A DNA stretch of 64,000 nucleotides from Nitrososphaeria archaeon (lineage in GTDB: Archaea > Thermoproteota > Nitrososphaeria > JACIWG01). Where the stretch lies: positions 18,206 through 82,205 of the forward strand of contig JAOAKB010000002.1 of assembly GCA_026413865.1 (NCBI GenBank), read 5' to 3'. Positions within the stretch are counted from its first letter, which is position 1; every line of letters starts with the position of its first letter. Below are positions 17,580 through 62,806 of this stretch, in pieces. A program made the position numbers and the translations under genes. Under the pieces are notes generated by a model that saw only the letters and a list, made by a program, of their open reading frames with translations, made no database searches and had not been told where the DNA came from.

Positions 17580-17595
17580 GAAAAATCTTTATAAG
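17580..17595 (+). promoter_or_regulatory. BRE/TATA promoter of the acidic micro-ORF
   Basis: gaaaaatcTTTATAAG, ending about 30 nt before the ATG at 17626. Confidence 0.6.
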
Positions 17596-17625
17596 CAAGA
17601 AACTTTAAGACCTCCAACGAACCTT

Positions 17626-17724
17626 ATGGAAGAAGAGTTCGAAGAAGAATTTGAGGAGGAATTTGAGGAAGACTGGGAAGAAGAAGGATGGGAAGAAGAG
17701 TGGGAGGAAGAAGAGGAGTTTTAG
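17626..17724 (+). CDS. 32-aa ultra-acidic microprotein (MEEEFEEEFEEEFEEDWEEEGWEEEWEEEEEF)
   Basis: ATG to TAG by manual translation. Mixed GAA/GAG codons. Flanked by a TATA box and a T-tract. Confidence 0.7.
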   Translation: MEEEFEEEFEEEFEEDWEEEGWEEEWEEEEEF

Positions 17725-17730
17725 ACTAGA

Positions 17731-17750
17731 CTTTCCTCCTTTCTTTTTTT
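17731..17750 (+). terminator. Pyrimidine/T-rich archaeal terminator
   Basis: ctttcctcctttcttttttt directly after the micro-ORF stop. Confidence 0.5.
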
Positions 17751-17754
17751 AATT

Positions 17755-18747
17755 TCAGACGGTTATTGATGGTGTCGTCAGGTCTGTTATATCCGCTAAA
17801 GCTTTTCTAGTAAAGTTTATTGCTGAAATTATAGATGAGATTTTAGAAATTTCCTTTATAGACCTATTCAATGTTAGAGTTCTTATTAAGTTAATCTTTT
17901 CCTCTATAGAGTCAGATATAGTTAGTATGCTCATTTTTAAAGTAATATTTTTAGACATGTACGCTTTATAAGCTATATCAAACATTTTCTCAAAAGACAA
18001 TTTGATTTCATGCAAAACATTTGATAACCCATTATCCAATGTGATGCCTACACTATTTATAACATTCGATGCAATCATGCTAGAATAGTCGCCTATTGAT
18101 TCGATGAGGCTTGCATAAAGTCTATGGTCTAAACATTCTATTGCACTAAGGTTAAACTTTCTCATAATATCTGGGCTTTGAATTGCACTTCTAATAAGTC
18201 TAACAAAAAGAAAATACAGTCTATCAACTTCATCATCAACCTTAATAACATCTTCAGCAAGTATATTATCATGATTTAGTAGAGAGGAAAATGAGTCAAG
18301 AAACATTGTTTTAACAAGTAAACTCATCCTATTTAAAATCTTATTAGGATTCAATAAGCTTATGTCTGTAACAAACTCTACCAACATTGAATCTTTATCT
18401 TCTTCAACAATTTCTAAGCCAGCAAGTTTAGATAAGAATGTCTTAACATCCTTTCTATCACCATTTTCTATGAAAGATAAATTTACAACTTTTATTAGAT
18501 TGTAGCCTAAAAGATATGCACCAGTAATATCGTCCAAGACAGCCTTTAAACTTCTTTTCCTACAATCTACTACCGACAAATTTTCTGTAAACTTCTTTTT
18601 TGTAGAAAATAATATTAGATTACCGAATTGGTCGACCTCTAAACCCAATACGTCCCCTTTGCAGACACCATACTTTTTTACCCAATCTTTAGGTAAAGAA
18701 ATTAATAGTGTTCCTTTTCCAACTTCTTGAACCTTTCTATACTCCAT
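17755..18747 (-). CDS. AbrB-PhoU phosphate uptake regulator family
   Basis: YRKVQEVGKGTLLISLPKDW (AbrB), AYLLGY, DDEVDRLYF, ESIGDY. Confidence 0.9.
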   Translation of the reverse strand: MEYRKVQEVGKGTLLISLPKDWVKKYGVCKGDVLGLEVDQFGNLILFSTKKKFTENLSVVDCRKRSLKAVLDDITGAYLLGYNLIKVVNLSFIENGDRKDVKTFLSKLAGLEIVEEDKDSMLVEFVTDISLLNPNKILNRMSLLVKTMFLDSFSSLLNHDNILAEDVIKVDDEVDRLYFLFVRLIRSAIQSPDIMRKFNLSAIECLDHRLYASLIESIGDYSSMIASNVINSVGITLDNGLSNVLHEIKLSFEKMFDIAYKAYMSKNITLKMSILTISDSIEEKINLIRTLTLNRSIKEISKISSIISAINFTRKALADITDLTTPSITV

Positions 18748-59140: not shown

Positions 59141-62100
59141 ATGAAAGCCATTTTCTTAAAACTTTGCCCAAACTGTGGAGGTGATATAAGCGATTACAGA
59201 CTCTCTTTAAAAGTTCCATGTGAAAAATGTTTACCTTTATCCGATGAAAAAATTTTAGAAATTGTAAGTGACAAGAAGAATGTACAGTTATATATTTTGG
59301 AACTTTTAAAGAACTCAGATTCATTAAAAAACTTACGCAGTCTATATGAAATTGAAATTCAGTTAGAGGAATTAAATAATTTATTTCACAGGGCTACAGG
59401 GAGTAGGCTTTGGAGTGCACAAAGAACTTGGGCTAAAAGGATATTTTCTGGAAAAAATTTTGCAATTATAGCACCAACAGGAATGGGAAAAAGTGTTTTT
59501 GGAATAATCCTCTCACTCTACTATGCTTTGAAAAACAGGAAATGTTACATAATTGTTCCAACTGCAATTTTAGCAGAACAAACTTATCAGAGAATGATAA
59601 TATTTTTAGAAAAAATTGGTACACAAATAAAAATTTCACGATACCATTCAATGTTAAGTGAAAAGGAAAGGGAGCTAGAAAAAGAAACAATTATTAGCAG
59701 ACAATATCATATATTAGTTACAACATCAGCTTTTCTTTCAAAAAATTTTGAAATGATAAATGGAGATGTTTTTGATTTGATCGTAGTAGATGATGTTGAT
59801 GCACTATTAAAGTCTTCAAAAAATGTTGACAAGGTACTATGTTTAGCTGGTTTTTCAGAAGAAATAATAGCACAGGGGCTTAGACTAATTGAGCTTAGAA
59901 GAAAATATCAAAAGAATTTGAGGAAAGGTGAAAATGTAACAGAACTAATAGATGAAATATGGAATATAAGAAAGAGAATAGAAAATTATATGAATACAAA
60001 GAAAATTGGGAACATAATTGTATCAGGTGCATCTCCACGAGCGAAGAGGACAAAAAGGATAAAATTGTTTAAGGAGCTTATGGGCTTCGAAATCGGATCT
60101 AGAATAGAATTTATAAGGAACATAGAAGACCTTTTTATTCAAAAAGTGGATAATATTGAAGAAAAGGTTGTGCAACTTGTTAAGATTCTTGGCTCTGGCG
60201 GAATCATATTTGTGCCCATGGATAAGGGTCTAGAGTTTGCTGAGAAATTATATAAAAAATTATCAAAGGAAAAAATTAGTGTTTCATTATATGATAGAAC
60301 TAAAGCTAAAATTTTAGAAGATTTTTCTTCAGGCAAGATTGAACTTTTGATTGGAATCGCATCCTACAGAAGCCCTCTTGCAAGAGGAATAGATTTACCA
60401 CATATAATAAGATATGCTATATTTGCTGGAGTACCAAAATTTAAGATAAGTCTAGACATGGAAAAGGACTTTACTCCAACTAGGGCTATAATATTACTTT
60501 CAAATTTAAAAGAACTTGTAAGAGAAGAAGAACAAGCAATTATTGAAAAATATGTTACAGAATTAAGAAGTATAGTGCAGCAAATACCATCAAGTGATAT
60601 CAAGGAAATTTTAGACTCAATATACAATAATTTAAAGCTTGAAGGATACAAAGGCATAATTAAAGAAAAACTTGAAAAAATTAGAGAGTTTCTTATAAAA
60701 CTTTTGTCTATGGAAGAGATTATAGAAAAAATTAGATCATCACCTAATATAACAATAAGTTCGGAAAGGGACAGACCATTCTTAGTTATACCCGATACCA
60801 TCGGATATATACAGGCTTCTGGAAGAACATCAAGAATGTTTGTTGGAGGTATATCAAAAGGAATATCTGTCACAATTGTTGATGATGAAAAAGCATTTAA
60901 TGGACTAGTTAGAGAATCCAGACTATTTTCTGAAGAAATAGAGTGGAAAAATTTTGATGAAGTAAACTTAAATCAAATTTTAGAGGAAGTTGATAGAGAT
61001 CGGGCTACAATAAAAATGCTTATGGCAGGTACTATAAGCCCACAATTTAAAGACCCTATAACAACAGCACTTTTAGTGGTAGAATCACCAAATAAGGTTA
61101 AAACGATTGCAAGATTTTTTGGGAAACCAAGTAAAAGAACAGTTAACGGATTAACAGTTTATGAAGTGAGTACGGGTGATTATATTCTTAACATAACTGC
61201 AAGTGGGGGACACCTATTTGACCTACCAACCCATTTAGAAAAGAATAGTATTCATGGAGTAATAAGATTAGATGATAAATTTGTACCAGTATATATTACA
61301 ATAAAAATATGCAGAAAATGTAAGAAAACTTTCGCAAAACCTTTAGAAAAATGTCCTTACTGCCAAACAGAGGTAATAGATAAAGCAAATACAATAGAGG
61401 CGTTAAGAAAACTTGCTTTAGAAACAGACCAAGTATTGATTGGTACAGACGCAGATGCTGAAGGAGAAAAGATAGGATGGGATATATCCACAGCACTCTC
61501 GCCATATACACCAAAAATAAAACGAATAGAATTTCATGAAATAACAAAAAGAGCTTTAGTGAATGGATTAAGAAACATGAGAGACATGGATATGAAGCTT
61601 GTAGAAGCACAGATGGTTAGAAGAGTAGAGGACCGTTGGCTAGGTTTCGAGTTAAGTGCAAAACTTTGGGACAGATTTAATGATAAGACGCTTTCAGCAG
61701 GAAGAGTACAAACACCTGTTCTAGGATGGATTATTAACAGAACAAACGAATCCAGAAAAAGTTTCCAGACATTTTTTGAAATAATATTAAAAAACGGACT
61801 AAAATTTATTATAAAAATACCAATAGTAGAAGACAGTGTAGTCAGGGAAGAAATTGATAAACTGCTTAAAACAAAATATTATATAAAATGCTTGTCTAAG
61901 GAGGAGATAGAAATTCATCCACTTCCACCATATTCTACGGACACATTACTTCAAGAGGCAGCGATTACATTAAAATTTACTGTACAGAAGACAATGAATA
62001 TTGCACAAGATCTATTCGAACTAGGACTAATAACATACCATAGAACAGACAGTATAAGAGTTTCACCTACTGGACAGAATGTGGCAAAAGAGTATATTAT

Positions 62101-62806
62101 TGACAAATTTAATAAAACATTCTTCAAACCAAGAGAATGGTCAAAAGAAGGCGCTCATGAATGCATTAGGCCAACAAGACCAATTGATGCAGTAAGATTA
62201 AAGCATATGCTTACTTTAGGAAGTATAAAACTTGCGAAAAAGATCACTCAAGAACACTTTCAACTGTATGAACAAATATTTAGAAGATTTATAGCAAGCC
62301 AAATGAAACAAGCAAAAGTGTTAAAAGAAAGGTATGAAATTAGATTCAACAATAATATTGAGTTTATTGAAGGATACACAAAGATAATAGAAGAAGGATT
62401 CAATTTGATCCAAAAAATAAATCTTATTCCAGAATTGCAGGGAGGAGAAGTTAGGGCTATAAATGTGAAAAGTTGGAAAGCACCAACAATACCACTCTTA
62501 AAACAAGCTGATGTAATAAAGCTGATGAAGCTAAAGGATATAGGTAGGCCGTCAACATATGCAAAAATTGTCACAACCCTCTTCCAAAGAGGATATGTAC
62601 AGGAAAACGATAGGAAGGATATAATTCCAACAAAAAAAGGATACCAAGTGTACTTTTATCTAAACAAAAGATTCTATGAATTTATTTCAGAAGAGACTAC
62701 ACAAAGATTAAAGAAGACCATGGATTCAATAGAAGAAGGTAAAGTAGACTATCAACAAATACTTAATAATCTTTACAAAGAAATACTAACTATAAGAGGA
62801 CAGTGA
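59141..62806 (+). CDS. rgy: Reverse gyrase
   Basis: N-terminal Zn finger CPNC..CEKC, APTGMGKS, DDVD, QASGRTSR, VESPNK, second Zn finger, GRVQTP, GLITYHRTDS, GRPSTY. Confidence 0.98.
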   Translation: MKAIFLKLCPNCGGDISDYRLSLKVPCEKCLPLSDEKILEIVSDKKNVQLYILELLKNSDSLKNLRSLYEIEIQLEELNNLFHRATGSRLWSAQRTWAKRIFSGKNFAIIAPTGMGKSVFGIILSLYYALKNRKCYIIVPTAILAEQTYQRMIIFLEKIGTQIKISRYHSMLSEKERELEKETIISRQYHILVTTSAFLSKNFEMINGDVFDLIVVDDVDALLKSSKNVDKVLCLAGFSEEIIAQGLRLIELRRKYQKNLRKGENVTELIDEIWNIRKRIENYMNTKKIGNIIVSGASPRAKRTKRIKLFKELMGFEIGSRIEFIRNIEDLFIQKVDNIEEKVVQLVKILGSGGIIFVPMDKGLEFAEKLYKKLSKEKISVSLYDRTKAKILEDFSSGKIELLIGIASYRSPLARGIDLPHIIRYAIFAGVPKFKISLDMEKDFTPTRAIILLSNLKELVREEEQAIIEKYVTELRSIVQQIPSSDIKEILDSIYNNLKLEGYKGIIKEKLEKIREFLIKLLSMEEIIEKIRSSPNITISSERDRPFLVIPDTIGYIQASGRTSRMFVGGISKGISVTIVDDEKAFNGLVRESRLFSEEIEWKNFDEVNLNQILEEVDRDRATIKMLMAGTISPQFKDPITTALLVVESPNKVKTIARFFGKPSKRTVNGLTVYEVSTGDYILNITASGGHLFDLPTHLEKNSIHGVIRLDDKFVPVYITIKICRKCKKTFAKPLEKCPYCQTEVIDKANTIEALRKLALETDQVLIGTDADAEGEKIGWDISTALSPYTPKIKRIEFHEITKRALVNGLRNMRDMDMKLVEAQMVRRVEDRWLGFELSAKLWDRFNDKTLSAGRVQTPVLGWIINRTNESRKSFQTFFEIILKNGLKFIIKIPIVEDSVVREEIDKLLKTKYYIKCLSKEEIEIHPLPPYSTDTLLQEAAITLKFTVQKTMNIAQDLFELGLITYHRTDSIRVSPTGQNVAKEYIIDKFNKTFFKPREWSKEGAHECIRPTRPIDAVRLKHMLTLGSIKLAKKITQEHFQLYEQIFRRFIASQMKQAKVLKERYEIRFNNNIEFIEGYTKIIEEGFNLIQKINLIPELQGGEVRAINVKSWKAPTIPLLKQADVIKLMKLKDIGRPSTYAKIVTTLFQRGYVQENDRKDIIPTKKGYQVYFYLNKRFYEFISEETTQRLKKTMDSIEEGKVDYQQILNNLYKEILTIRGQ

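Follow-up and report, generated by a model that had tools for sequence, protein, structure and literature searches.

Within 64,000 nucleotides from a Nitrososphaeria archaeon (contig JAOAKB010000002.1, positions 18,206 to 82,205; this whole stretch is termed the window in the following), a micro-open reading frame (micro-ORF) at 17626-17724 encodes a peptide that consists mainly of glutamate runs with spaced phenylalanines and tryptophans. As judged from sequence comparison, it is very probable that this micro-ORF is a genuine, independently signalled protein-coding gene that is translated and selected for its microprotein product, and that it belongs to a family of such genes that has so far escaped annotation.

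The micro-ORF and its product

17626-17724, plus strand: micro-ORF, 32 codons followed by TAG (17722-17724), encoding the peptide MEEEFEEEFEEEFEEDWEEEGWEEEWEEEEEF

The peptide MEEEFEEEFEEEFEEDWEEEGWEEEWEEEEEF contains 22 Glu, 1 Asp, 1 Gly, 4 Phe and 3 Trp among its 32 amino acids (aa), no basic residue, no tryptic site and no Cys, and has a net charge of about -23. The aromatic residues occupy positions 5, 9, 13, 17, 22, 26 and 32, the C-terminal end is EEEEEF, directly followed by the stop codon, and the Glu codons are mixed (14 GAA, 8 GAG). The original prediction, which had been made from the DNA letters, had given this peptide, its composition, its aromatic positions and its Glu codon counts, and all of this proved exact when the sequence was read again. 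The frame around the micro-ORF comprises 60 codons from stop to stop.

In a six-frame scan of the 1.45-Mb assembly, stretches with at least 12 Asp/Glu per 20 residues occur only in this micro-ORF and in one paralogue, and since there are only two such acidic stretches genome-wide, the micro-ORF is not a chance by-product of base composition. The paralogue, MPYLEEEFEEEFEEDFEEDWEEDWDEEWEEEEEEF, lies outside the window on contig C48 (94295-94403, minus strand), where it is preceded by a TATA box of its own, AAAGTTTATAAA. Its neighbours there are a Sua5/YrdC gene in divergent orientation on one side and, on the other, a triosephosphate isomerase (TIM) gene on the same strand; the paralogue is also conserved in G001-G004, the other four members of the genus that were searched. 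AlphaFold models the window peptide as a single long helix with a predicted local distance difference test (pLDDT) score of 93, in which the aromatic residues would be spread over more than one helix face (arithmetic at 100 degrees per residue), but as helices are a frequent default prediction for poly-Glu, this model carries no weight either way.

Evidence for coding

Four genomes of the same genus have an orthologue of the PhoU-domain gene that converges on the micro-ORF, namely the window's own genome (G000, 77% complete), G003, G001 and G004, and all four hold the micro-ORF in the same convergent position. The encoded peptides comprise 32, 32, 31 and 35 aa, respectively, with ATG and frame retained, and as these lengths differ by whole codons, all indels are in frame. 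The stop follows directly after the last Phe in all four cases, although the stop codon itself changes (TAG, TAG, TAA and TGA). Frame-breaking indels or losses of ATG or stop, which could have spoken against a gene, thus do not occur in these orthologues.

The substitution pattern points in the same direction. The window copy and the G003 copy differ in six bases, all of which are synonymous third positions. Among 20 same-length close pairs from the whole family, which are not mutually independent, codon position 3 holds 152 of the 160 base differences, and the coding frame contains 141 synonymous as compared with 15 non-synonymous codon changes (stop-to-stop changes being scored as synonymous), while the two shifted frames of the same pairs give synonymous to non-synonymous ratios of 1:151 and 14:141. 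A constraint on the purine tract as DNA or RNA is disfavoured by this, because it would be expected to permit A/G changes at any position, and this is not seen. The predicted selection on the peptide rather than DNA slippage is therefore borne out by the dominance of synonymous third-position changes, the kept frame, and the stop that is maintained as TAG, TAA or TGA.

Could the micro-ORF nevertheless be no gene at all, but a purine-rich (GAR)n repeat or an RNA element that is open in frame by accident? In a GAR repeat none of the three sense frames contains a stop, a polybasic ORF indeed overlaps the micro-ORF, and our search for sequencing runs with the locus gave DNA runs only. Against such an accident stand the third-position bias that is confined to one frame, the in-frame indels, the stop that is kept through three different codons and the conserved start signals, and in addition Rfam gave nothing above noise (best matches below the gathering score, with E-values of 0.023 and 0.32) and the fold of the region is ordinary. 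We regard this explanation as hardly credible.

17651-17752, plus strand: overlapping 33-codon polybasic ORF (MRRNLRKTGKKKDGKKSGRKKRSF...), in the +1 shifted frame

With 1 synonymous versus 151 non-synonymous changes in its frame, this polybasic ORF is excluded as a gene by the substitution pattern, as the third-position bias lies in the other frame. The minus strand has no ORF of at least 25 codons here. A structured non-coding RNA was likewise considered and rejected, as all Rfam matches remain below threshold and the fold z-score is 0.17.

Signals flanking the micro-ORF

17580-17586, plus strand: purine-rich GAAAAAT resembling a B recognition element (BRE), preceding the TATA box
17588-17595, plus strand: TATA box TTTATAAG, first T 38 nt 5' of the ATG
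17730-17750, plus strand: pyrimidine-rich CCTCC stretch and T-tract (tttcttttttt at 17740-17750, with T7 at 17744-17750)

Both the upstream BRE/TATA element and the downstream T-tract that had been pointed out in the original prediction are present. The AATCTTTATAAG block is invariant in all four same-genus orthologous loci, and the DNA further upstream is unalignable. The idea of an independently transcribed unit thereby gains support in the sense of an independently signalled gene with its own genus-invariant TATA box. When the usual distance from TATA box to transcription start is applied, the position of this box implies a very short transcript leader of about 8 nt, or practically none.

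On the 3' side, the CCTCC stretch with the T-tract probably represents a terminator or a 3'-end structure. Base pairing between the GAR-rich 3' part of the ORF and the pyrimidine-rich CTTTCCTCCTTTCTTTTTTT downstream of the stop (17686-17755, plus strand) can give a hairpin of about 20 bp upstream of the T-run, and this hairpin is present in both the minimum free energy and the centroid fold. A scan of the region for bacterial-type terminators found none, but its model is bacterial and hence uninformative for an archaeon.

Similar signals accompany the family in other organisms. Most family members have a TATA-like box 36-50 nt 5' of the ATG, many lineages have a Shine-Dalgarno-type motif (GGAGG or GGTG) 5-12 nt 5' of the ATG, and in most members a run of five or more T is found within 45 nt 3' of the stop, often after a CCTCC-type stretch.

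A family of Glu/aromatic peptides in Thermoproteota

The family was searched with a degenerate pattern for EEE-[F/W/L/C]-EEE-[F/W/L/C]-EE, using the reversed pattern as control. In a sample of the class, the pattern occurs in 13 of 401 genomes (6 of 81 genera), as compared with one match of the control; the 16 distinct ORFs are without exception short and free-standing, and in 15 of them F or W immediately precedes the stop. In a sample of the phylum, 57 of 401 genomes contain the pattern and none the control. Families rich in the pattern (f22 11/16, f29 14/17, f34 4/4, f35 8/24) stand beside families in which it was not found (f30 0/23, f31 0/25, f38 0/15, f5 0/56). As related genomes are not independent, kinship inflates all these counts, and the sensitivity of the pattern is unmeasured. 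With a looser C-terminal pattern, G004 proved to have a third copy and a divergent member came to light in a different genus of the same taxonomic family, and the counts obtained with the strict pattern are therefore lower bounds.

A global scan of about 186,000 bacterial and archaeal genomes, with one genome per species, resulted in at least 118 loci (69 archaeal, 49 bacterial according to their records). Among the matches listed, 59 of the 69 archaeal loci are micro-ORFs (at most 85 codons from stop to stop) with an acidic tail that ends in W (46) or F (13); four further archaeal micro-ORFs among these matches end in E, and the terminal aromatic residue is thus found in 59 of 63. None of the 49 bacterial loci among the matches listed is of the micro-ORF type, and neither is any of 45 pattern loci on viral contigs. 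A viral anti-defence mimic was rejected on account of this last result.

The carriers of the family, for which a pattern search across archaeal genomes had been suggested, are Thermoproteota. As labelled in their records, they include Desulfurococcaceae/Desulfurococcales, Thermogladius, Thermofilales, Thermoproteales and one metagenome-assembled genome of Sulfolobales, furthermore Bathyarchaeia, Methanomethylicia and Culexmicrobium, and the Nitrososphaeria-type lineages Caldarchaeum, Terraquivivens, Pelearchaeum, Geothermarchaeota and Scotarchaeum. Two of the carriers, a Thermogladius chromosome (L086) and a Desulfurococcaceae strain (L061), are probably from cultured organisms, to judge from their records.

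The architecture of the peptides is Met, a hydrophobic cap or none, five to nine repeats of Glu3-4-Phe/Trp, and an aromatic end with free carboxylate. Among 48 distinct peptides that end in F or W, the length ranges from 23 to 55 aa with a median of 35, the number of aromatic residues from 5 to 9, and the net charge from -15 to -38. Their repeat core consists of 74.6% E, 12.5% W, 6.6% F and 3.6% D, and Lys, Arg or His is found in the core of none of the 48. Hydrophobic positions are most often 4 (114 cases) or 5 (60 cases) residues apart, F and W swap between lineages, and short hydrophobic or aromatic N-caps such as MLWL, MKWLL, MVLY, MFRF or MPYL are common.

No match for the family in the searched databases

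No family of Pfam (E-values up to 10) or NCBIfam matches the peptide, including DSS1_SEM1, Ribosomal_60s and Zn_ribbon_LysW; there was no match among PDB sequences and no neighbour in the ESM Atlas. None of 10 family peptides had an exact match in a collection of 15 billion proteins, and a homology search with a 51-aa family member gave 3286 word candidates but no match at E-values up to 10, for which the composition filter is the probable cause. A published description of the family was not found by sequence string or keyword at the level of titles and abstract openings, supplements lying outside this search. As far as Pfam, NCBIfam, the protein collection and the literature were searched, the predicted novelty holds. 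We rate the family as categorically new because no description was found and every test of family membership failed, and its mode of action could yet prove to be of a known kind, namely that of an acidic mimic.

If the peptide is made, a conserved gene family with a range that covers Desulfurococcales, Thermofilales, Bathyarchaeia, Methanomethylicia and thermophilic Nitrososphaeria has been missed by annotation pipelines, as its members are tiny and of low complexity. It would also be a case in which composition filters of the HMMER type hide a real family. The design of the peptide, i.e. charge, aromatic spacing and terminal aromatic residue, is unusually legible.

The link to thermophily

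Reverse gyrase (TIGR01054 above cut-off) is encoded in 42 of the 401 genomes of the class sample, namely in 12 of the 13 peptide carriers versus 30 of the 388 other genomes; the one exception among the carriers is a genome of 85% completeness. Two large families of this sample do not have the peptide (0/224 and 0/78), and, as judged from genome numbers and sizes, these look like the mesophilic ammonia oxidisers. In the phylum sample, the pattern was also not found in several families with hyperthermophile-sized or complete genomes (0/23, 0/25 and 0/15), and heat alone therefore cannot explain the distribution. Thermophily thus appears to be necessary but insufficient for the presence of the peptide. 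The window itself contains a full-length reverse gyrase gene:

approximately 59141-62791, plus strand: reverse gyrase (TIGR01054, 1304 bits)

Because of this gene, the organism is considered to be a thermophile.

An alternative reading of the peptide is that of a cation or polyamine buffer, in which the carboxylates and, by cation-pi interactions, the Trp and Phe side chains would bind long or branched polyamines, Mg2+ or K+ in the cytoplasm of thermophiles, so that the peptide would serve as counter-ion or thermoprotectant and not as a ligand of proteins. Polyamine-binding sites are lined by Glu and Trp, as for example in PotD, and the high negative charge, the basic-free cores, the preference for Trp/Phe, the frequent reverse gyrase and the neighbourhoods without a conserved protein partner all suit this idea. 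The binding of ions would make the kept aromatic C-terminus and the hydrophobic N-cap superfluous, though, a peptide of 3-4 kDa from one or two gene copies would need to be present at very high levels, and many families with hyperthermophile-sized genomes do without the pattern. We therefore consider a buffer function to be rather unlikely.

Gene neighbourhoods

17755-18747, minus strand: AbrB/SpoVT-PhoU-domain regulator, 330 aa, convergent, beginning 30 nt past the micro-ORF stop

This neighbour matches the Pfam families PhoU (1.8e-13) and MazE/AbrB-type (3.8e-4), with TIGR02135 remaining below its cut-off. It had prompted the idea that the peptide might be a polyphosphate surrogate that is related to PhoU, and an examination of synteny had been suggested. 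The synteny turned out to be limited: a PhoU gene adjoins the peptide gene only in the four same-genus genomes and in two Thermofilales records, no PhoU homologue was found near the peptide gene in five genomes checked of the carrier family f29, and the paralogue in the same genome resides between Sua5 and TIM, so that the idea is not supported. The Thermofilales PhoU protein has its best match among the three PhoU paralogues of the window's genome in the PhoU protein of the window (103 bits versus 81 and 64), with the reverse comparison being indecisive. A complex prediction for the PhoU neighbour with the peptide scored 0.00, which is no answer and has no weight either way. The open frame around the PhoU orthologue in G004 (C12:8307-9290; L004) spans 571 codons versus about 335-340 in the other three genomes, which may reflect a fusion or a missing upstream stop.

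To characterize the surroundings more generally, 41 archaeal loci with 2-kb flanks were surveyed, and the 82 nearest upstream and downstream ORFs were compared with Pfam. ABCE1/RLI lies directly downstream on the same strand at seven loci (six Bathyarchaeia, one Nitrososphaerota). Further recurrent neighbours are aEF2 (2), aspartyl-tRNA synthetase (2), TIM (2) and AbrB-PhoU (2, Thermofilales), divergent upstream neighbours are Sua5 (4), THUMP (2), KaiC (2) and MoeA (6), and small ligand-binding proteins of the AsnC type (Lrp/AsnC) are neighbours at four loci.

The widest linkage found is that to a TFS-N-like Zn-ribbon protein, which adjoins the peptide gene at 8 of the 41 loci; in the phylum sample, its gene is found within 1 kb of the peptide gene in at least 14 genomes of five families (f22, f27, f56, f74, f78). 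With a length of about 100 aa, this protein has the RPB9/TFS-type zinc ribbon of the N-terminus but lacks a TFIIS_C domain; it terminates in an acidic EYYxVFLESY sequence and scores below the cut-off for TFS. Copies were recorded at the following positions:

L064: 1638-1943, minus strand: TFS-N-like protein
L056: 2199-2510, plus strand: TFS-N-like protein
L106: 2139-2432, plus strand: TFS-N-like protein
L120: 1578-1856, minus strand: TFS-N-like protein
L086: 2231-2542, plus strand: TFS-N-like protein

A phyletic match between this protein and the peptide was tried and rejected, as the protein occurs in 258 of the 401 phylum genomes, including families without the peptide.

Same-strand arrangements of this kind could indicate that the act of translation is the function, i.e. 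that the micro-ORF is a sensor rich in Glu, Trp and Phe codons that couples the supply of charged tRNAs to a downstream gene, with an irrelevant peptide. Trp codons account for up to about 20%, the micro-ORF lies on the same strand directly upstream of ABCE1, TFS-N-like or TIM genes at no fewer than 14 loci, and at L064 and L067 the TFS-N-like frame opens right after the stop, with a first ATG about 10 nt further on. The window and many other loci, in contrast, have a convergent next gene and a T-tract after the stop, and the terminal aromatic residue, the exclusion of basic residues and the interchange of F and W point to selection on the product. A sensor ORF therefore appears very unlikely.

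A precursor peptide of a cofactor or of a ribosomally synthesized and post-translationally modified peptide (RiPP) was discarded, as there is no adjacent maturase: radical S-adenosylmethionine (SAM) enzymes, YcaO and ATP-grasp were found neither among the nearest ORFs of the 41 loci nor among the neighbours in the window. In seven Desulfurococcaceae/Thermogladius loci, the peptide gene faces a convergent gene for a conserved protein of about 160 aa; Pfam gave no match with three copies of this protein scanned and NCBIfam none with two. Copies are located as follows:

L083: 1467-1946, plus strand: ~160-aa protein
L086: 1486-1971, plus strand: ~160-aa protein
L115: 2071-2556, minus strand: ~160-aa protein
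L122: 2074-2583, minus strand: ~160-aa protein
L104: 1136-1627, plus strand: ~160-aa protein
L124: 1472-1960, plus strand: ~160-aa protein

Possible function of the peptide

What could such a peptide do? Composition and context permit the tentative proposal that it acts on basic nucleic-acid-binding proteins, as a polyanionic mimic or chaperone with aromatic anchors. The peptide would be an encoded polyanion with aromatic “stickers”, in which the Glu runs would imitate the nucleic-acid backbone and pair with Lys/Arg-rich surfaces, and in which the spaced Phe/Trp residues and the aromatic C-terminal tip might insert into pockets that otherwise receive stacked bases or hydrophobic ligands. In this way it could shield, chaperone or competitively regulate basic nucleic-acid-binding proteins of transcription and translation at high temperature, in a mode that would be akin to that of DSS1/Sem1, SSB-type acidic tails and Hero proteins without being homologous to them. 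This reading is based on the exclusion of all basic residues from the core, on the conservation of a terminal aromatic carboxylate as in SSB-type tips, and on neighbourhoods that are rich in transcription and translation genes. Because F and W can replace each other, these positions seem to provide a generic aromatic anchor and not a catalytic function. A function of some other kind than those considered here retains a share of the probability.

In a wider and somewhat more doubtful form, Thermoproteota thermophiles might carry phylum-wide (Glu3-4-Trp/Phe)n polyanions as free nucleic-acid mimics or as acidic-aromatic ligands for the transcription and translation machinery. If the peptide is made, an encoded polyanion would join the known means of archaeal thermoadaptation or of the regulation of nucleic-acid-binding proteins.

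Several points weigh against a mimic or chaperone of this kind. No RNA sequencing runs that contain the locus were found, only two DNA runs (hot springs metagenome; 0.91 and 0.56 of the sampled words, the better of which may be the source sample), and neither a transcript nor a ribosome footprint nor the peptide itself has been observed so far. There is no universal neighbour among the 41 loci and no partner was identified; a polybasic mirror-image micro-ORF that might serve as partner does not occur in the genome, and the neighbour counts come without background comparison and from related genomes that are not independent. The TFS-N-like protein, for its part, is acidic too; it was not found in the genome to which the window belongs, and is present among its 258 phylum genomes in all members of the peptide-free families f30 (23/23) and f38 (15/15), so that it is no obligate partner. 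Divergent members escape the strict pattern, which makes absences soft, and the above-mentioned families with hyperthermophile-sized or complete genomes apparently live without the pattern.

Comparison with known systems

The C-terminal tail of the ribosomal stalk protein aP1 (PF00428) resembles the peptide in having an acidic stretch that is followed by a hydrophobic or aromatic end, and ABCE1 and aEF2 are among the neighbours of the peptide genes. As aP1 tails bind aEF1A, aEF2, aIF5B and ABCE1, the peptide could be a free mimic of this tail that binds to translational GTPases or to ABCE1 and adjusts translation or the recycling of ribosomes. The gene is located directly upstream of ABCE1 at 7 of the 41 loci and converges on aEF2 at two, and the acidic run with hydrophobic or aromatic end is indeed the general design of aP1 tails. 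On the other hand, aP1 of this class ends in ...EEEExxLEGLxSLFG, more precisely LEGL(S/A)SLFG, which is absent from the peptide, there is no PF00428 match and no dimerisation domain, ABCE1 adjacency is limited to two lineages, and the window copy is near neither factor. Nothing is replaced either, since aP1 was found in 20 of 21 relatives; it was not found in G000, which most likely is an assembly gap in this 77% complete genome. A replacement of aP1 by the peptide is thus rejected, and a stalk mimic that acts beside aP1 is improbable.

LysW-type amino-group carrier proteins (PF21344) have an acidic, Trp-containing tail for enzyme docking, and zinc ribbons of the LysW type with near-identical (EEEW)n tails exist in Chloroflexi and in one archaeon, from which it follows that such a tail serves as a docking arm elsewhere. 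Proteins of this type with (EEEW/F)n tail are encoded at four loci:

L102: 1785-2051, plus strand: LysW-type protein
L107: 1950-2282, minus strand: LysW-type protein
L089: 1983-2183, minus strand: LysW-type protein
L092: 1821-2039, plus strand: LysW-type protein

PF21344 is matched by those of L089, L102 and L107 with E-values of 1e-15 to 6e-12. The tails of all four end in W, Y or I and not in the usual acceptor Glu, and the LysW-type gene of L092 neighbours a chorismate mutase/prephenate dehydratase gene. The peptide might accordingly be imagined as a carrier or tag for ATP-grasp ligases, comparable to the LysW acidic tail or to RimK substrates, all the more as a lysine-2,3-aminomutase-like radical SAM gene lies beside the LysW-type gene in L102 and L107, with an ATP-grasp gene also in L102. 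The acceptor of LysW is a C-terminal Glu in an EDWGE-type end, and the ATP-grasp enzyme LysX is encoded beside it. Unlike LysW, the peptide has no zinc ribbon, no Cys and a Phe/Trp end in place of the acceptor Glu (Phe in the window copy), and the 82 ORFs that lie nearest to the archaeal micro-ORFs include neither ATP-grasp nor radical SAM genes. There is very little to be said for a carrier function on these grounds.

Hero (heat-resistant obscure) proteins are described in an excerpt of PMC7067378 as highly charged disordered chaperones. The peptides share with them the high charge, presumably also heat solubility and disorder, and the proposed protection of clients, but Hero proteins are eukaryotic, much longer, and not built of repeats.

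The acidic tips of single-stranded DNA-binding proteins (SSB; ...DDDIPF in bacterial SSB, similarly in phage T7 gp2.5) have an acidic run, and their terminal aromatic side chain and free carboxylate dock. The EEEEEF end of the window peptide directly before the stop and the terminal F/W that prevails in the archaeal micro-ORFs among the matches listed are alike. The SSB tips, however, are tails of oligonucleotide/oligosaccharide-binding (OB)-fold proteins, while here the whole product is a longer, repetitive standalone ORF with its own TATA box.

A further likeness in design is that to DSS1/Sem1, a small free-standing acidic peptide with spaced Phe/Trp anchors of the EEF and EDW type that binds OB-fold or PCI-domain partners as glue or DNA mimic. 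DSS1 is named a small acidic partner of BRCA2 in an excerpt of PMC7641332, and according to an excerpt of PMC11329725 it blocks DNA binding by BRCA2 HD-OB1; an action of this type is what we propose for the peptide. Acidic segments with Trp/Phe anchors, the trait in question, are present in the window peptide and in the 48 distinct family peptides. The DSS1_SEM1 profile (PF05160) gave no match at Pfam E-values up to 10, although the HMMER composition filter may suppress low-complexity matches. DSS1 has a length of roughly 70-90 aa, and the peptide is about half its size; with 32 aa, a strict tetrad/pentad repeat, more than 70% Glu and no C-terminal helix segment, it also differs in its construction, and its archaeal hosts have neither BRCA2 nor the 26S lid. 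A membership in the DSS1 family is thus not supported, and the resemblance is best read as convergent. If the above-mentioned wider reading is true, the peptides would be prokaryotic equivalents of eukaryotic DSS1/prothymosin-type acidic partners and of acidic-aromatic interaction motifs, and perhaps their forerunners as regards design.

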